Below the pieces are notes generated by a model. That model ran no database searches. It had not been told where the DNA came from and was given only the letters and a program-made list of their open reading frames with translations. The translations under genes and the position numbers were made by a program. 64,000 bases of DNA from Naegleria gruberi (Eukaryota), in the NCBI GenBank assembly GCA_000004985.1, contig GG738865.1; one strand, written 5' to 3'. Positions 38,555 through 52,300 of this stretch are shown in pieces. The stretch's first letter is position 1, and every line of letters starts with the position of its first letter.

Positions 38555-40092
<1,538 letters not shown>

Positions 40093-40396
40093 AAACATCA
40101 TGTTTAAAAATCTTTACAAAAATGTCCAAGCACTTCTTAACAAGTTGATTCATTACTCTTATCAAGTACTCCACTCCAGTAATTCCTTAATTGTCGGCCA
40201 GCTTAGAGGTTCATTTTCAGTGTGTAGATAACCTCCTTTAGATCTGCAGTAGATCTTTGCTCAATAAGGGCATCAGAAATGAGAGAATAAGGAATAAGGA
40301 TGGACTCCTTTATGGACAATTACGAAAAGATCATCTTTGGTTATTTCACATTGTTAATGTGTTGTTATATGAAATTGTGACAAAATTGTTTTTTAT

Positions 40397-41776
40397 TCAA
40401 GCAATAAGCCCTTGACTTTGCTTCCACTTTTGACCGTGAGAAGCTACTTGTGTTCTTGATCGTGTCTTGACATACTTTTCAGCAATGAGTTTCCAATTGT
40501 TACCACATGCCTCAAGACCTTCGAGGAAACGTTGATGTTCTTCCTCTGTCCACCATCCCTTATGACTACCATTCTTATTCTTGGCAGACAAATCACCCTT
40601 CACACTCGACTTGAGTCTCAGCTTACCAATCTTTTGTTTCGAGTAATTGTTAGCAATGTCAACTTCTTCATCGTCACCTTCAGATTCTTCACTTGGTGTC
40701 GTGGTATTTTGTTTGTTTCCTCTCTTAATACATGCAGAAGCAACCTTCTTGAGCACTTCAACATTTGGACATGTTGTTGATGAGACACTGGCAGTTGTTG
40801 TCGTTATGGTTGGATTCTTCTTCTGGAGCTCTTCCTTACTACTACTTGTCATTGTGGTTTCACTACTAGAAACACCACTCGAATGATGATCGTTGAATTG
40901 ACTAGGGGATGATGAATTACTACTTTTCACATCTGTGCCAATAATTGAGACATTGGAAGAATGGGAAAATCCAGATTCATCCATCAATACATTACTATTT
41001 GGAACGTTTCTAACTGGGCTCAATACAGGTGGTGCTGTAGTTGTAGTGGCTGTAATTGTTTTACAGGCAATTGGCACTGCACATGTCACTATCTGCTGAC
41101 TTGTGGCATGATTAAAAGCAACAATTCTTCCAGTAGTTGGGGAGGTATTCAAAAGTGGGTGTTAAAGTGGTGTTAAAGTTGGTGGTGGACTATTCACATG
41201 ATCCACTACTTTAGAGTTGGTTGTAAAATAATTTGGCTTGTTTACAGTACCTTCCCAAATGGAGTTTTCTCGATATAGTTGTTGAGGTGCTTGATGGGTT
41301 GGATAAACGGAGAATAACGAGGAGTAACGATTGCCAACAACGACATGATGACTCGTAGACGATGATGCAACAACAGGCATTATTGATTGGCTTGTGGTGG
41401 TGGAGTGAGAAAGGGATGGGAGTTGTTGTGGATGATGTTGCATCATCTGTGGTGGTTGTGTTGAAGAATAATTATTATTACATGATGAGGATTGACTGGT
41501 AGTAGGAATGGCTGTACAGGAAATGGTATTAGAGAAGGCATGTGTTGGTCTGGTTAACAAATTAGGATAGTTTGGTGTTGTTGTGGTTGCAGGATATATA
41601 TCTGAAAAGAGTGAAGAAATGGAAGGTAATTGAATAGTGGCAGAACTATTAGTACTGCTGCCACTGTCTTTTGTCAAATGATTCATTGGCTGAATGTATT
41701 GTTGTTGTTGTTGGCTTGCACTCATGAGTGGATTGGTGGTCATAGTATTCATTCTTGTCATGTTATCTGCCATCAT
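40397..41776 (-). CDS. SHAQKYF-class single-MYB/SANT transcription-factor-like gene, interrupted by an in-frame TAA (+ strand 41162-41164) between a Gln/Ser-rich N-terminal half and the MYB-containing C-terminal half
   Basis: The C-terminus has KGWWTEEEHQRFLEGLEACGNNWKLIAEKYVKTRSRTQVASHGQKW (MYB/SANT, SHAQKYF-like). ORFs 41776-41162 and 41152-40397 are in the same frame, separated only by the TAA. Status is uncertain: intact gene with a cryptic intron, sequencing error, or pseudogene. Confidence 0.55.
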
Positions 41777-45011: not shown

Positions 45012-45083
45012 TCCCGTGTGGTCCAATGGCTAAGATACCTGGCTCTCACCCAGGAGATCCGGGTTCAATTCCCGGCACGGGAG
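45012..45083 (+). tRNA. trnE-CUC: tRNA-Glu (anticodon CUC), 72 nt
   Basis: TCCCGTG/CACGGGA acceptor stem; anticodon stem CCTGG/CCAGG; loop CTCTCAC (CUC at positions 34-36, U33, A37); T-arm CCGGG-TTCAATT-CCCGG. The layout is nearly superimposable on known eukaryotic tRNA-Glu(CTC). No intron. Confidence 0.9.
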
Positions 45084-45374
45084 GATTCATTTTTGCTGGC
45101 CTTCGTTTTTCATTCTCATGCTGCTTTTGCATTATCAATACTGCAATAATATAAATAAAGTCTTTTTTCAAATCATTTTGCAACTACTAGTACTAGTAAG
45201 TTAAATTAGTACTACGCACAAATATTCCAAAATCAAGTCATCTTGACTCATATCAAATATTTCAAATAGTAACAAAAACCGAAATTCATAGACCACATCA
45301 ATTTTCGCTTCCTCCACAAGTAGCACTTTCCACAAGTTCTCAATTATGTTGGGTCAGTCATCATCTTTAAAAAA

Positions 45375-46695
45375 AATGGCAACTAAAGTAACCGAAACTC
45401 TTGTTGTGCTTTTGTTGTTATTCTTCGCTACTGCTTCTGGCATTAACGCATCATCACCTGCGGAGCCAGCATTCAAAAGTCAATTACGTTCATGTTTTGA
45501 AGCAAATAGAAATACCGAATGTTTGGCCACACAATCATCTTGGTCTTCATGTGGAGGTTCAGTTTATTCTTCATATCAACTTGCACTCTCCATCTCAATG
45601 AATTGTATGAGAAGTGTCTGTGGAAGTCAAAATAGTTTATGTTGCAATACCTATTGTACAATGTATGGTTTATCTGGATATGATCATTCAGTTTGTTTCA
45701 ATAAGTGTTTCAATGGATATACTGGTTCAGTTGTTGGTGCTGCAACTTTGATGAAAACAATCAAGAGTAGTTTGGATACCAATGTTGATTATGTTCCTCC
45801 TGCCACAGCTCAAAAGAAGGACGATGAAACCAAAGTCTATTGTGATATTCCATGTAATTCAGAATTTGCTTTCTATTCCACAACTGGTAAACAACCAAGT
45901 ATTTTAAATGGTGGTTTGAAGGCATTGTTGGCTTCTAATACCAAGACTAATACTTTGGCTGCTAAGAAAAAGCTCATTTCTTCTTGGTCAACCAAGGTTG
46001 GTTCCTCTAAGCCATCATCCTCATCCTCCTCCTCACGTAAGAGCATCAGCAGCATTAAAAGCATCATTGGAAGAAGTAATAGTGGTTACAACAAGGCCAT
46101 TTCAAAGAGCATCTCAAAATACCTTGGCTTCAAACCAGTTAAACAAATTAATAGTGATCTGGTCTATAAGAGACTTGTTAAATTTGTTTCAAGCATTCCA
46201 AGTCTTGGATACATCTTGAGAGGTATTCGTGATAAGAAAACCAGAACCTACCTTACAAGAGGTTACAAATTCATTCAAGCTGCTAGAAAACAAGTCTATC
46301 CACAAAAAGCATTTGCAATCTATGATGGTAAAGTATTGAATGTGAAAGCCACAGTTCAATTGGGTAATCCAGCATTGGTTAAGCAGAGAAGTACCATTTT
46401 CCCAATTCCATTCAATTCATTGACTCCATCTTCACTTTCAAAGAAATCCTTTTTCAATTCCAGTGTTAAACATAATCAAATCTGTACTGGTACAGCTATT
46501 GCCAAAGTGGAATATTATCGTAGATCTCGTATCACTTGTAAAAAGATCAAGTCATGGATTAGTGGAGCTTCAAAGATTAATCCAAAGAATATTTATCAAG
46601 TCAACAAGTTCCTCTTCCTTGTTTATAATCAATGTAAGAAAGCTAAAGCTACTTGTGTTGTTCCATTTGTTGAAGCAATCAAAACAACTGATTAA
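45375..46695 (+). CDS. secreted cysteine-rich modular protein, paralog A (signal peptide, 10-Cys N-terminal domain, Ser/Lys-rich linker, 4-Cys C-terminal domain)
   Basis: ATG 45375. Signal-like MATKVTETLVVLLLLFFATASGINA. N-terminal domain SSPAEPAFKSQLRSCFEANRNTECLATQSSWSSCGGSVYSSYQLALSISMNCMRSVCGSQNSLCCNTYCTMYGLSGYDHSVCFNKCFNGYTGSVV is shared with the paralogs at 46905 and 47970(-). The C-terminal Cys module (QICTGTAIAKVEYYRRSRITCKKIKSW...CVVPF) is also shared. Confidence 0.7.
45440..45735. repeat. left arm of an inverted repeat (about 290 nt, about 98% identical to 48715-49010 in reverse orientation), coincident with the 5' coding region of paralog A
   Basis: By-eye alignment of 45451-45731 with the reverse complement of 48721-49010 shows only about 5 mismatches, all at synonymous third positions. 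Mirror-image antisense ORFs in the track (45473-45661 - and 48797-48985 +) are near-identical, which confirms the repeat. Confidence 0.8.
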
Positions 46696-46904
46696 ATTTT
46701 TGTAATTCAATAACTTTTTACAAATATAATATTAATAATATTGAAAAATACTTATTACAATTACAGGTCTGTTACAAAATCTTTTAATGGATAGGAATAG
46801 CATTTTTAAAATACTCGCTCAAACTATATGCAAATTAAACAGTGTACTTTTCACCAAATGTGTATGTGACTCAAAACATCCAACTGTCACACCAGTAAAA
46901 AAAA

Positions 46905-47894
46905 ATGACATTGTCATCCAAACAAATTGTCGTTGTGTTAATTATTGTTGGATTCTGTGTTTCTTACACATTGGCTTCTTCTGCCAGCGAACCAGCATTC
47001 AAAAGTCAATTACGTTCATGTTTTGAAGGAAACAGAAACACAGAATGCATAGTCAATCAAGGAAGCTGGAATTCTTGTGGTCGTTCAGTTTATTCTTCCT
47101 ATCAATTAGCTGTTTCCATTTCAATGAATTGTATGAGAAGTGTTTGTGGTAGTCAAAATGGTTTATGTTGTAATACTTATTGTTCAATGTTTGGTTTATC
47201 TGGAAGTGATCATTCGAATTGTTTCTCCTCATGTTATAATTCATACAGGCCATCGACAAATGGTGGTTCATCTTTTGGTGGAAATATTCCTGCAGCTAGT
47301 GATGCTTTAACTGGTTCTGTATCTTGTTCTATTCCATGCGCTGCTGCTTTCTCCTTCTATGAAAATAAAGTAGCCGAAAGTGTGGCCAAAAAACCAGCAG
47401 AAGTCAAGACATTCAAAACTTTGGTCAAGAATTTACAATCTGGCAAACCAATCAAAAAATCAAATCCTGGCTACACAATCACCTCTGCCAAGACTTTGTC
47501 AACCAGCAGCCCTAGTTCTGCAACCTATTTCACAGCACTTAAACCAAAAGTTGTCCTGAAGGGAAGTGAACATAATCAAGTCTTACGTACCTCTATTGAA
47601 GAAGCTGTTCCAACAAACTTGGACTCGGCTCAATTTTACAATTCTCAAGTGGCATCCAATCAAATTTGTTCCAATTCAATGAAAGATGTTGTAAAGGTTT
47701 CAATTTTGAAGAATACCAAAATTGAATGTTCTAAATTGTTGCAATGGATTAAGAATGATAAGACAATTGCTCCTGAAAATTTGGAAAATGTTTATAATTT
47801 CATGTTGGTTTTGCATCAAAAGTGTTCTGCTTTGCCAAATAGTAAATGTGTCATGCCAAATGTTGGATCCATCAAGCTCACTAACACTAAATAA
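46905..47894 (+). CDS. secreted cysteine-rich modular protein, paralog B (329 aa)
   Basis: Signal-like MTLSSKQIVVVLIIVGFCVSYTLA. Same N-terminal Cys domain, more diverged (SASEPAFKSQLRSCFEGNRNTECIVNQGSWNSCGRSVYSSYQLAVSISMNCMRSVCGSQNGLCCNTYCSMFGLSGSDHSNCF). The C-terminal module is also shared (QICSNSMKDVVKVSILKNTKIECSKLLQW...CVMPN). Confidence 0.7.
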   Translation: MTLSSKQIVVVLIIVGFCVSYTLASSASEPAFKSQLRSCFEGNRNTECIVNQGSWNSCGRSVYSSYQLAVSISMNCMRSVCGSQNGLCCNTYCSMFGLSGSDHSNCFSSCYNSYRPSTNGGSSFGGNIPAASDALTGSVSCSIPCAAAFSFYENKVAESVAKKPAEVKTFKTLVKNLQSGKPIKKSNPGYTITSAKTLSTSSPSSATYFTALKPKVVLKGSEHNQVLRTSIEEAVPTNLDSAQFYNSQVASNQICSNSMKDVVKVSILKNTKIECSKLLQWIKNDKTIAPENLENVYNFMLVLHQKCSALPNSKCVMPNVGSIKLTNTK

Positions 47895-47969
47895 ATTGTG
47901 GATCTATCAATTAATAACTAATTTTTATTAGAAAGCACCCAAATCATAAATTTCCAAAATAAAATTATT

Positions 47970-49087
47970 TTAAAGAGTGTCAGTATTCAAATTAATTCTT
48001 CTAAACATTGGAACAACACATTGTTTAGACTTCTTTGGAATGAGAGATCTACACTTATTATGAACAATCATCATGAATTTGTAAACAGTAAGCAAATTAT
48101 TTGGTGAAATTTCTGAAACTTCCTTCATCCAACGTTGAATCTTGTTACAATTTACTCTAGATCTCTTATAATAGGTAACTTCAACTGTCTTTCCAGTATT
48201 GGCACAGATTTGATTTTTACCAACTTGGCTGCTTTTCAAAACGGGATTCAAAGGGACAACCTTATCAAGTGAAATGTCAAAAACTTGAAGTCTGTCACGA
48301 GTTACTTGAATAACATTGGAAATCATCTTTTTATCAGTTTTTCCTGATGATTTAGAGGTTGATTTAGTGACCTTTCCATTCTTAATAGTTGTGAGTTTAG
48401 TTTTTTTCACAAAAGACGAAATGAAAAGTTTCTTCTTTTTGCCCAATACTGAAACTCCACCATTTCCACTTGCTGTTCCAGTAGTACTATTTGAACCATT
48501 AATTTGAGAAAGGAGAGTTCTCAAGAAATTTCTTTCCTTTCTTGTTGGTTGTTCATTGGCAAAATAAAAAGCATAAGTAGCATCACATGAAACAGAACAT
48601 TTGACAATGGCTTTATCATCAGTGGTGGCACTTTTTGGAACAAAGTCAGAGTTATCATCGAATGGGATGGAAGCATAAGCAATAGAAGTAGAAATTGGTT
48701 TCATCAAAGTTGCAGCAGCAGAAACAACTGAACCAGTATATCCATTGAAACACTTATTGAAACAAACTGAATGATCATATCCAGATAAACCATACATTGT
48801 ACAATAAGTATTGCAACATAAACTATTTTGACTTCCACAAACACTTCTCATACAATTCATTGAAATGGAGAGTGCAAGTTGATATGAAGAATAAACTGAA
48901 CCTCCACATGAAGACCAAGATGATTGTGTGGCTAAACATTCGGTATTTCTATTTGCTTCAAAACATGAACGTAATTGACTTTTGAATGCTGGTTCCGCTG
49001 GAGATGATGCATTGACAAAAGATGAAGATGTGAGAAGGGCTGCCAACAAGACGAAACATGCCAAAACTAGTGGATTGAATCTTGTCA
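47970..49087 (-). CDS. secreted cysteine-rich modular protein, paralog C (about 372 aa from ATG MTRFNPLVLACFVLL...)
   Basis: Signal-like start MTRFNPLVLACFVLLAALLTSSSFVNA. The N-terminal domain protein sequence is identical to paralog A. The linker has diverged. The C-terminal module is shared (QICANTGKTVEVTYYKRSRVNCNKIQRW...CVVPM). Confidence 0.7.
48715..49010. repeat. right arm of the inverted repeat (partner of 45440-45735)
   Basis: See left arm. It lies in the 5' coding region of minus-strand paralog C. Confidence 0.8.
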
Positions 49088-49305
49088 TTATTTTTTTTAA
49101 GCTTTCTTCAAAGATGTCACCCACAAGAACACTGACACAATCAAAATGGGTAAATTTGTCAAAAAAAATTTAACACACTAAATATCTTATAACCATCACC
49201 CGTCAATATTATTATTCGAATCCAATGAACATTCAAAGAGAGATGAAAGAAATTAAAGGGAACTTGCAAGTGAAAAGTTCCCGCCAAAAATAACTACAAA
49301 AAAAA

Positions 49306-52300
49306 ATGAGTAAAAACATATGGTTGCCGCCACTTTCGCTATCATCTCTGCAGAGAAATGATGGGAAGAACATCATGTTTGACACTCAGAAAGTAATCAA
49401 GCCGACCACCTGGTTGTATATAATGATGATACTGCTGATATTGTTAATGAATAGTGGAGGAGTTGTGAGATGTGGAAATGTTGTGGAAGTGGATGCTGAG
49501 GAAGTGAGGCAGTTGGATTTATATTTGAAAAAATCAAAACCTGATTTGGAAAATTCTCAGCTAGCTTTATTGGCATTTAAGGAGACGAGTCAAATGCTTA
49601 TACTCACCAAGACATTGTCATCCTTGTCCATCACACCAAGAACAATATTTTACTCTGCAGGGTTTATCGGAAATACTATTGTTCAATTGAATGCAAGTGA
49701 AATCAAATTCACCTCCTTGGCTAATGTATTTAACAATTCAACAAGACCATACAAAGTTGTTGATAGGCTTACATCATTATGCTCTTCTACTCTTTCTCAA
49801 TTATATCAGAACAACACCTTTATTCCAAATTATTATATTTGTTTTTTCAAAACAACACTCACATCAGAGAATAGAGTTTTCTTCTCAACAACAAGTGAAG
49901 GATTCAGATGTTTAAAACTAAATTCGGATGGGGATGTAATAACCAAGGATGTTTCTAAGGGATTTATTGAAGATTTTGCTACCTCATTATGTGTTATAAC
50001 CATAATATTTATAGCCCTTCTGTGGGTACAAGGATCATTTAAAAGGAGAATTATTGATACAAAGAGATATCCCTTTACCAATTATTACTTTGGAAACGAT
50101 ACTGATTGGAACTCTTCAACTTTTTCGGATCTTTCAGTAACTCTTAGACCAATATTTCCATTCTTTAAACATTTTTCCAATCAGTTTGACAAGCTTTATA
50201 AACTGATATTCAGATCAATTCAAAACAAAGTGGACCAGGAACATATTAGGAAGTATAAGAAATTTGGCTCTTCAACACTGCTGAAATACCAATTATTCTT
50301 CGACTTTTTCCTCTTTATAGTTATTAGTTGCTTATCAATGGTGCAGTTATTTGTTCCTTCTGTACTATATTTCCCAAATTTTATTCAAATACCTATTAAT
50401 TTTGACCTTGGGAATGACGAAACCTTCACAAGTTATTGGATAGGAGGGGCTGATTTTGTACCTATCAGTTTGGGTTTTTGGTTAATATCCCTCACTTTGA
50501 TGATATTGGGAATAATTTTGTTAATAGTTACTTCTAGTTCAAAAGAAAAGATGATGTATTGGAGCACAAACTCTTTGCCAGACACCAACATTTTGGTTTT
50601 CACTGATGCAATCTTCAAAATTATTTTCATAGTCTTGATTAATGTGATAATCATTTTACTACCGTTCTGGACATTTACCATTAAGGGAGTTCTTATGGTG
50701 GTTATTACAATAGCATCTATTTTCTATGGGAGTCAACAAATTTTAATTCCAACAGAGAAGGTTATTCACGCTATTCATGATGGAAATTATAAGATGGTTG
50801 TTGCCTTCTTGATGTTTGCATATTTTAAGGAACTTCTAGTGATCATACCATTTTTTATTCAGATATTCATGGTGGCCGAAACTATATTTGGGCTAGTTTG
50901 GAGCTTGATTCTTTCCTTTGTTGCAAACAACAGCAAGCTTTCCTTGATTGGTATTTTTGGTATTGTAATTAATTCTGCAACAAGTTTACTTCAAGACTTA
51001 CTACAGCCATCCAGAGTTACCAGGAAAAAGATTGTGGAAAGGTCAGATACATTCGTTTTTCCCTCTCTAACAAAGACCAGCACACAATTCATCCTTGATA
51101 ATGTCGCTGCAAAATATGGTGGCATTATTAATACCTACTCTAAACTGGTAGAAAGTAATGAGATGGTGGATTATACATACAAGGATATTCTCTCATTAAA
51201 TGACAACTTGGAAGAACTTAAGGACATTACAAGAAAAAGAAGTCAGTCTGTTGGAAAATCTGAAAACGGTGAAGCTAAGCTAGCAGCAACAACTATTGAA
51301 AAAATTCACAACCCTGTTAACATCAAATTCGAAAAAAATGAAGACAAAAACGAAGAGGAGCTAAAAACAAGATATACGGAGATCAATGATAGGCCAAAGT
51401 ACATGCATGTTCTCTTCAAGAAAGAAATTGCCTTACTCGTTAGAGGCATCTTCCTTTCAACGCAAGAGAAGAAAAATGAAAAATTGAGAGTAATCTTTAA
51501 GAGAGGAGAGAGGCTTTATACTCCATTGTTGAATACAGACATCAGAAGAATCCATCACAATTTAGTGGGTAGAGTCAAGATAGCAACAGGAAATCTGAGT
51601 AATTATTTAGTAGTAATTTTGATTGCAATGATTATTTTCTTGTCTTTTACTTATTCTGGTGCTGAAAGTGATGGTATGGACATTATGTCAAATATGGCTA
51701 TTGTTATTTCAATCTTTATTCCACAACTTTTTGGAAGATTGGATGAAGGACAAGTTGATGAACTATTCGAAAGAAGAATTGAGGAAACTATCCTTTTAAC
51801 CAAGAGAGATCTTGCAAAGAAACTTGACTTACCAGAGAAGGATCTCAATTTTTGCATTTTCAATTTTCAAAACGATTCAGATATTAGTAACTTTTTAGAG
51901 CACAACACCCCAGCAGTGTCTGAAACTATTGGAAGAAAAATGTAAGTATATTTTAACGAATTGTTTTACTTGAATCAAATGAAAGATTGGAACATTGGGA
52001 AAGTGCTTCAACAAATGGATTTATTACAGCTCAAAAATTCAAGCCACTCATGCTTATTGTATGGGATGAAACCCTTAAAATCAATGCAAAGAAGGGCACT
52101 GCTTCCGCTACAAATGACTATCTCAAGACTCATAGCCAATTCTTGACATCATTTTCAAACATAATTTATTGTATTAGTAATTTTGAGGCTGACTCCTTTG
52201 TGAGTGCTTACGAATTCATTCACGCTGTGGAGCTTCTCAAAAAATCAATCACAAGAAAGGAAGAAGATCAATGCTCAGATATGGATATAACATTTGCATT

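Follow-up and report, generated by a model that had tools for sequence, protein, structure and literature searches.

A cysteine-rich, predicted secreted protein family of Naegleria shares its N-terminal domain with small proteins of Acidovorax-type bacteria

A 64-kb stretch of Naegleria gruberi DNA (the window, in which all positions below are counted unless a contig is named) carries three adjacent paralogous genes, here called A, B, and C, whose products combine an N-terminal cysteine-rich domain (N-domain), a basic linker, and a C-terminal cysteine-rich domain (C-domain). Secreted Cys-rich families confined to one lineage are common among protists, and such a cluster alone would be ordinary. 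What is new here is a structurally unclassified domain common to bacteria and amoebae. The N-domain, for which neither sequence nor fold comparisons detect a relative in Pfam or the PDB, occurs both in this bacterivorous amoeba and in a narrow group of freshwater betaproteobacteria, with 57 to 74% identity between the N. gruberi domains and the bacterial exported proteins; a preliminary description of the same DNA had not gone beyond the cluster itself. In addition, the phylogeny of the N-domain conflicts with the Naegleria species tree despite a conserved protein architecture and gene neighborhood. With these features, the family offers a concrete example in which a protist predator and bacteria that may be its prey would have exchanged a domain. 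The overall explanation that we favor, at a little better than even confidence, is that the three genes belong to a Naegleria-restricted family of secreted, anchorless, disulfide-rich modular proteins built on an exchanged N-domain and having a putative binding role. The structural and evolutionary parts of this description are held with high confidence, and the functional part, namely, ligand binding by the N-domain, attachment to surfaces, and binding of prey or matrix, is tentative.

Gene A (positions 45376 to 46695, plus strand; 439 amino acids; XP_002677700.1/NAEGRDRAFT_67035) is delimited by its open reading frame (ORF) and by alignment and is 100% identical to P0001, an N. gruberi protein encoded on an 820-kb scaffold; a longer ORF begins at 45346. 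Gene B (46905 to 47894, plus strand; 329 amino acids; XP_002677701.1, D2VDT7) follows head to tail after a 209-bp gap, and gene C (47970 to 49088, minus strand; 372 amino acids; XP_002677800.1/NAEGRDRAFT_48735) lies tail to tail with gene B across 75 bp. None of the three contains an intron. The preliminary description had recognized all three genes, but it placed the start of gene A one base early, at 45375, and left the minus-strand gene C one base short, at 49087. It had also described the products as paralogous, secreted-looking, modular Cys-rich proteins, and this is borne out by an alignment of A, B, and C that shows every module in the same order (N-terminal signal-like segment, N-domain of about 90 amino acids, linker with a mini-motif, and C-domain) and by tblastn values of 2.5e-77 for A versus C, 4e-51 for A versus B, and 1e-12 to 1e-16 for the C-terminal modules.

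Signal peptides, which were judged heuristically from the n- and h-regions, an Ala at -1, a small residue at -3, and alignment with bacterial Sec signal peptides, are predicted at 45376 to 45450 in gene A (plus strand; amino acids 1 to 25), 46905 to 46976 in gene B (plus strand), and 49088 to 49008 in gene C (minus strand). The putative cleavage site of A (...GINA|SSPAEP) aligns with those of the bacterial Sec signal peptides, and in the family the predicted site immediately precedes a conserved SS[PA]xEP. Each of the three proteins has a single hydrophobic segment, which is N-terminal, and their C-terminal tails are not hydrophobic; because of this, soluble secreted products without a transmembrane or glycosylphosphatidylinositol anchor are predicted. 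The mature proteins are predicted to contain 16 Cys each, with 10 in the N-domain, 2 in the middle of the linker, and 4 in the C-domain. The N-domain lies at 45451 to 45723 in gene A (plus strand; amino acids 26 to 116), 46977 to 47249 in gene B (plus strand), and 49007 to 48735 in gene C (minus strand), and its 10 Cys, invariant in A, B, and C, are spaced C-x8-C-x9-C-x17-C-x4-C-x6-CC-x3-C-x12-C-x3-C. The C-domain, at 46471 to 46692 in gene A (plus strand; amino acids 366 to 439; isoelectric point [pI] 9.9), 47655 to 47891 in gene B (plus strand), and 48218 to 47973 in gene C (minus strand), is basic in all three proteins (pI 9.4 to 10.1), whereas the N-domains are near neutral (pI 7.4 to 8.1). 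The possibility that the C-domain is a diverged copy of the N-domain was rejected at an hhalign probability of 0.09%.

The linkers range from 135 to 249 amino acids, with 23 to 25% Ser plus Thr, 10 to 13% Lys, a pI of 9.4 to 10.3, and a net charge of +6 to +32. They contain two to eight dibasic sites each and no tandem repeats beyond one 21-nt Ser run, and they are probably disordered and possibly O glycosylated; a mucin-like secreted glycoprotein, for comparison, would carry O-glycans on a Ser/Thr/Pro-rich tandem-repeat region. Within them, a mini-motif, C-x3-C...F.FY, is invariant across the three proteins; it lies at 45841 to 45876 in gene A (plus strand; C156-x3-C160...F166-Y167), 47325 to 47360 in gene B (plus strand), and 48599 to 48564 in gene C (minus strand) and is also present in Naegleria lovaniensis (CEISCNSVINFY). 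Gene B carries the name "nucleoporin" in NCBI and UniProt, which looks like a database misannotation: the protein has no Nup domain or Pfam match, has a signal-like N terminus and 16 Cys, and is a paralog of two "predicted proteins."

An AlphaFold2 model of the N-domain, built from a 14-sequence alignment, has block means of the predicted local distance difference test (pLDDT) of 87 to 91 over approximately residues 31 to 110 and a predicted template modeling score of 0.60. The modeled domain is all helical, with short helices followed by main helices at residues 67 to 82, 87 to 96, and 101 to 112; in this model, C90-x3-C94 falls within the second of these main helices and C107-x3-C111 within the third (gene A numbering here and below). 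C49 and C59 are found only in N. gruberi, and C94 and C107 are lost together in the bacterial proteins P0014, P0015, and P0017. Because these Cys are gained and lost in pairs, we infer disulfides C49-C59 and C94-C107, and the hairpin geometry suggests a further bond, C90-C111. The latter two would form a CX3C...CX3C helical staple between the last two helices of the model, and the domain as a whole would be held by five disulfides. Besides Cys, P31, L37, F41, E42, W56, A70, R79, G83, T92, and G98 are invariant in all 14 sequences, which include both Naegleria species, and N86 is nearly so.

The preliminary description recognized no named family in these proteins, and the profile and structure searches agree with it. 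Among Pfam families, including saposin, lipid transfer protein, CFEM, hydrophobin, EGF, antistasin, and others, the full proteins have no match and the isolated N-domains hit none at an E value of ≤10; the sole Pfam match of the C-domains, Hyccin (E = 0.027), is taken as chance, as are the matches of 13 family members (E ≥ 0.035). Searches of PDB sequences with single sequences and with N- and C-domain profiles returned nothing significant, and a structural search with the N-domain model found no PDB or viral fold match. A word-indexed search of 5.8 billion proteins recovered the three N. gruberi proteins only. When 1.84 billion cluster representatives were searched with a HMMER profile, five more proteins were found, comprising N. 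lovaniensis C9374_014248 and short proteins of 70 to 145 amino acids with the N-domain only, and a second indexed search with an enlarged alignment added eight more, six full length (114 to 116 amino acids) and two partial (97 and 64 amino acids). The hmmsearch E values are 1.4e-32 for P0004, 2.8e-20 for P0006, 1.4e-8 for P0008, and 5.7e-45 to 2.1e-33 for P0011 to P0017. No match carrying the species name Naegleria fowleri appeared in the profile search or in the second indexed search.

In bacteria, the N-domain alone appears to constitute a small exported protein of 114 to 145 amino acids. Its bearers are Acidovorax lacteus JCM 31890, Acidovorax sp. metagenome-assembled genomes (MAGs) (e.g., MBP8140968.1), and a lower-GC proteobacterial lineage, and all of the proteins are annotated as "hypothetical protein." They are homologous to the N. 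gruberi N-domain over its whole length (E = 1e-20 to 1e-45) and share with it the A|SS[PA]xEP cleavage context, the blocks EPxFxxQLxxCFE and CxRxxCG..N.LCC.T, and 6 to 8 of the 10 Cys. They differ in that the domain stands alone, without C49/C59, linker, or C-domain, beside genes for a lipoprotein or secreted proteins and for an acyltransferase resembling the apolipoprotein N-acyltransferase Lnt (the Lnt-like protein). The distribution is narrow: of the 185,579 species representatives in GTDB, the single match is A. lacteus JCM 31890; the cluster that includes the NCBI "Acidovorax sp." MAG protein has members on 57 and 67 contigs; and a scan of 241 million metagenome records yielded just two more Acidovorax-like loci. 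No homolog was detected among viral contigs, phage records, or plasmid records, hence there is no sign of a mobile vector.

The Acidovorax-type contigs have GC contents of 0.60 to 0.67, carry ABC-transporter, GGDEF, aminotransferase, and CoaBC genes, and show the gene order lipoprotein (292 to 313 amino acids, with lipobox), Cys-rich protein (114 to 116 amino acids), and Lnt-like protein (525 to 547 amino acids). The lower-GC lineage is represented by two contigs (GC 0.45 to 0.48). One, L009, encodes a Cys-rich protein (145 amino acids), a secreted protein (137 amino acids), a second secreted protein (218 amino acids), and an Lnt-like protein (520 amino acids); the other, L010, is shorter, encoding a Cys-rich protein of 122 amino acids and then a protein of 141 amino acids, and stops within the third gene. 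The Lnt-like gene is present on every contig long enough to show neighbors, and its modules span 5062 to 7943 on L001, 4841 to 7972 on L006, 1218 to 4137 on L007, 340 to 3471 on L009, 5001 to 8524 on L013, and 3045 to 6650 on L014. The Lnt-like protein scores 131 bits against the NCBIfam lnt cutoff of 132.9 and retains the catalytic Glu/Lys/Cys motifs (WPE, K..LVP, and LLC[FY]E); apart from this subthreshold lnt match, NCBIfam and PADLOC found nothing in the operon partners. The paralog is divergent and rare, with 12 further proteins at an E value of ≤1e-60 in the whole database, and the A. lacteus copy is a "hypothetical protein" at NCBI. Its distant members, from Chitinilyticum litopenaei and a metagenome lineage, adjoin a homologous lipoprotein, but their small secreted partner differs; this alternative partner has 88 to 103 amino acids and ends in PPEVLNLQL[AT]PP. 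Because the small partner varies among the Lnt-like loci, the bacterial core module appears to be the Lnt-like paralog together with a lipoprotein or with secreted proteins of other kinds, among which the Cys-rich protein is one choice of small partner out of several. In the 64-kb window, tblastn (E ≤ 1) detects neither an Lnt-like gene nor a lipoprotein or partner gene, and candidate homologs of the linker or C-domain among the bacterial operon partners were rejected, with tblastn values of E ≥ 0.5 only. As a separate observation, the three small secreted-protein genes of L009 (340 to 1906) have a GC content at third codon positions (GC3) of 0.33 to 0.40, compared with 0.56 in the adjacent Lnt-like gene.

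Over 90 aligned columns of the mature domain, the N. gruberi N-domains are 69 to 74% identical to P0011 to P0013, 65 to 70% identical to A. lacteus, 59 to 67% identical to P0014, P0015, and P0017, and 57 to 59% identical to P0004, compared with 41% identity to N. lovaniensis. In neighbor-joining bootstraps, run with the variable loop included and removed, the split of N. gruberi plus the Acidovorax type from N. lovaniensis plus P0006 and P0008 received 97 to 99%, Naegleria monophyly received 0%, and the placement of N. gruberi within the Acidovorax type, to the exclusion of P0004, received 84 to 93%. Quartet-informative sites are distributed 9:1:1 in favor of the grouping of N. gruberi with the Acidovorax type, and the sites at which N. 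lovaniensis exclusively shares its residue with one other group number 2 for N. gruberi, 7 for the Acidovorax type, and 11 for the lower-GC bacteria. Since N. gruberi is closer to the Acidovorax type than to its congener and Naegleria monophyly is never recovered, a transfer between domains of life is indicated, and on these alignments at least one crossing of the N-domain between bacteria and Naegleria appears to be required, whichever its direction. GC3 is host-like on both sides, with 0.15 to 0.21 in the Naegleria N-domains and 0.70 to 0.81 in the Acidovorax-type copies, which argues against both contamination and recent transfer; as all copies match their hosts, it gives no clue to the direction.

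The family is also present in N. lovaniensis, where C9374_014248 (XP_044541618.1; 356 amino acids) has the full architecture of A, B, and C, including a basic linker with C-x3-C..FY. It differs from the N. gruberi proteins in being single copy, in having 8 Cys in its N-domain, and in carrying a 115-nt GT-AG intron within the N-domain, after codon 99 (L002 10298 to 10412). Its locus has Myb and tubulin-tyrosine-ligase (TTL) genes on one side and, on the other, a marker matching the window at 52.4 kb. Because this locus is collinear with the window, the family was probably in place before N. gruberi and N. lovaniensis split and would later have grown from one copy to three in N. gruberi, in line with the local expansion proposed in the preliminary description. 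The C-domains are 33 to 39% identical among A, B, and C and 22 to 27% identical to that of N. lovaniensis, as vertical descent predicts. In the surroundings, TTL and Myb (window 38675 to 40717; L002 1296 to 3219) are conserved between the species, with TTL reaching 91% identity in tblastx; the TTL/Myb block lies inverted with respect to the Cys-rich gene, which leaves the order collinear apart from a local rearrangement.

Two directions of transfer may be considered. If the gene moved from bacterium to amoeba, an Acidovorax-like donor would have supplied an N-domain that replaced the resident one in N. gruberi and then spread among the paralogs by gene conversion; this direction is slightly favored by the tree topology, because N. 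gruberi is nested in the Acidovorax type, and it needs an in-place domain replacement. If it moved from amoeba to bacterium, the gene would be vertical in Naegleria, with at least one transfer from the N. gruberi lineage into Acidovorax; this direction is favored by the shared architecture and the collinear gene order. It implies that the nesting and the grouping of N. lovaniensis with P0006 and P0008 are partly due to long-branch attraction and needs fast evolution in several lineages. An alignment of 75 to 90 columns analyzed by distance methods does not decide between the two.

Gene conversion is seen within the N. gruberi cluster itself. An inverted repeat of 299 nt with 97% identity, found in a repeat search, coincides with the N-domains of genes A (arm 1, 45445 to 45743, plus strand) and C (arm 2, 48715 to 49013, minus strand). 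Synonymous (dS) and nonsynonymous (dN) divergence was calculated by region with the Nei-Gojobori method. Inside the 299-nt tract, the A and C N-domains have a dS of 0.125 and a dN of 0, whereas the dS between the signal peptides, linkers, and C-domains of A and C ranges from 0.7 up to saturation. The low dS within the tract relative to its flanks shows a recent gene conversion between A and C that was restricted to the N-domain and acted atop strong purifying selection, which accounts for their near-identity, a feature that the preliminary description had not addressed. For A versus B and B versus C, the dN/dS of the N-domain is about 0.23 to 0.32; that of the C-domain, over all pairs, is about 0.45 to 0.6.

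The best guess for the function of these proteins is that they are extracellular binding proteins, perhaps directed at the bacterial envelope. The mature protein would consist of a compact helical N-domain, a long basic spacer with one small CxxxC loop, and a terminal basic 4-Cys domain of about 75 amino acids. Tandem and inverted duplication would have produced the three N. gruberi copies, in which the N-domain would be kept close to uniform by purifying selection and by gene conversion between A and C, with the linker left to drift. The N-domain would be the ligand-binding end, its ligand being some part of the bacterial cell envelope or else a lipid or glycan of common occurrence, and the cationic linker and C-domain would keep the protein on anionic surfaces. 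Released by the amoeba, such proteins may bind either the bacteria on which it preys or the matrix of its own surface. The corresponding bacterial proteins are predicted to be exported alone in Gram-negative cells and are encoded beside a lipoprotein-acyltransferase paralog.

Several points weigh against this explanation. The tree was built from 75 to 90 columns by neighbor joining with a simple distance correction. The branches of N. lovaniensis, P0006, P0008, and P0004 are long, and long-branch attraction could therefore lie behind both the non-monophyly of Naegleria and the nesting of N. gruberi. The signal-peptide calls derive from -1/-3 heuristics, not from a trained predictor. The full-length AlphaFold2 model (three-sequence alignment) has a pLDDT of 38.7, with the C-domain and linker at low confidence. 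The invariant polar residues E42, R79, N86, and T92 might just as well belong to a catalytic site or to that of an inhibitor, and the idea of a bacterial-envelope ligand draws solely on the bacterial gene neighborhood. A literature search by locus tags and accession numbers found no paper naming genes A, B, or C; in the literature on the Naegleria secretome, cyst wall, and horizontal gene transfer, nothing specific was found.

One alternative is that these are proteins of the cyst wall or surface matrix, in which the Cys-rich ends would serve to bind or cross-link the polysaccharide of the wall, with the Ser/Thr-rich spacer acting as a glycosylated strut. Secreted-looking, anchorless proteins with 16 Cys, a Ser/Thr-rich spacer, and two terminal domains able to bridge partners would suit such a role, and Cys-rich lectins are the main cyst-wall proteins of Entamoeba, Giardia, and Acanthamoeba. 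However, there is no similarity in Pfam to a known wall lectin or carbohydrate-binding family, our searches returned no homolog under the name of N. fowleri even though that species forms cysts, and bacterial homologs that are stand-alone exported proteins are hard to tie to a eukaryotic wall. We regard a wall function as unlikely on these grounds.

Another alternative is that A, B, and C are proproteins cut at dibasic sites of the linker, yielding an N-domain peptide of about 90 amino acids and a C-domain peptide of about 75 amino acids that would be antimicrobial or toxin-like against prey bacteria, by analogy with the multipeptide precursors of amoebic pore-forming peptides and of plant alpha-hairpinins. 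The two to eight dibasic sites per linker, the strongly basic C-domain, and the CX3C...CX3C pattern, whose paired loss of inner Cys marks a helical-hairpin staple typical of small defense peptides, are compatible with processing of this kind. On the other hand, dibasic sites are expected by chance at 10 to 13% Lys, the N-domain is near neutral (pI 7.4 to 8.1), and Pfam shows no similarity to saposin-like or other antimicrobial families. That a bacterium encodes the same domain for its own use also speaks against a general bactericidal activity, and this possibility appears quite unlikely.

An equally doubtful extension of the transfer argument would make the N-domain a token in the predator-prey relation of amoebae and bacteria, secreted by Naegleria as a module for recognition of self or surface and captured or donated across domains of life. 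Acidovorax-type bacteria would have captured the N. gruberi version, would lipidate it via the Lnt-like acyltransferase and display it on the envelope, and would evade or manipulate grazing by mimicry; in the reverse case, the amoeba would have taken over from bacteria a protein that binds the envelope and made it into a receptor for recognizing prey. If true, this would mean that an undescribed fold has been exchanged repeatedly across domains of life, with its 57 to 74% identity held by a shared functional constraint.

The preliminary description had proposed diversifying selection in the linker, and a rapidly diversifying family of secreted effectors or adhesins with a positively selected linker is a further alternative. 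The local expansion in copy number and the unalignable linkers of 135 to 249 amino acids are what such a family would show. In addition, an allele of gene B (P0019; a 2,052-bp contig of an ENA assembly) is 98% identical to gene B, and its eight differences concentrate in the linker (five), with two in the signal peptide, one at the extreme C terminus, and none in the Cys domains; these changes fit relaxed constraint as well as positive selection. However, the proportion of synonymous differences in the linker is 0.70 to 0.80 for all pairs. Because these sites are saturated and the alignment is unreliable, they yield no dN/dS, and diversifying selection cannot be demonstrated from them. Although the sequence of the linker drifts, its basic, Ser/Thr/Lys-rich composition is kept, as is characteristic of a spacer under compositional constraint, and the free-living bacterivore N. 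gruberi has no known host to which effectors would be delivered. This alternative is considered very unlikely, and the family is better described as one in which the end domains are conserved and the linker appears to be a spacer constrained in composition but otherwise free to drift.

Finally, bacterial contamination or a chimeric assembly, suggested by amino acid identities of up to 74% to Acidovorax proteins that are unusually high for a eukaryotic gene, is refuted by the position of the genes between eukaryotic genes on the 820-kb N. gruberi scaffold, by their amoeba-typical GC3 (0.15 to 0.21 versus 0.70 to 0.81 in the Acidovorax-type genes), by the in-frame fusion of the N-domain to Naegleria-only modules, by the spliceosomal intron inside the N. 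lovaniensis N-domain, and by the presence of the bacterial copies, with the same neighbors each time, in the genome of an isolate and in many assemblies made independently.

The window is eukaryotic in character, being AT rich (GC of about 0.33), with long intron-poor ORFs and genes for F-box, TTL, Myb, and EIPR1 proteins, and tblastn found no further copy or fragment of the family within its 64 kb. A tRNA-Glu(CTC) gene (45012 to 45083, plus strand; ARAGORN; Rfam, 61 bits), a neighbor outside the family, sits 292 bp upstream of gene A. Its adjacency, which had been pointed out in the preliminary description, seems incidental, and its candidacy as an integration landmark was rejected, as there is no tRNA at the N. 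lovaniensis locus. On the other side of the cluster, adjoining gene C, an ORF of 879 amino acids (49306 to 51945, plus strand) apparently encodes many hydrophobic segments; it has no Pfam match and no counterpart by tblastx in 19.6 kb of the N. lovaniensis locus.

Among known proteins, the N-domain resembles alpha-hairpinins, saposin-like proteins, nonspecific lipid transfer proteins, and CFEM proteins in being all helical, secreted, and disulfide dense. Like the alpha-hairpinins, it carries CX3C...CX3C, which lies on the last two helices of the model and whose inner pair is lost together. The bacterial homologs invite a different comparison. In the Aat/Cex system, AatD, a paralog of Lnt, acylates the glycine that cleavage by signal peptidase I leaves at the N terminus of CexE, a small secreted protein (PMC7943197; see also PMC7478709). 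Like CexE or dispersin with AatD, the bacterial homologs are small (approximately 10 to 12 kDa) Sec-exported proteins without a lipobox that are encoded beside an Lnt paralog, and their mature N terminus is their most conserved end, which would fit the AatD/CexE logic. They differ in showing no sequence similarity to CexE or dispersin (no Pfam match), in having a predicted mature N terminus of Ser-Ser-Pro rather than Gly, and in the lack of AatPABC-like transporter genes in their loci. The likeness is confined to the bacterial homologs, and nothing points to acylation in Naegleria. By analogy with AatD/CexE, the bacterial Lnt-like loci may represent an undescribed dedicated acylation module, one that may extend the recently discovered noncanonical N-acylation of secreted proteins.

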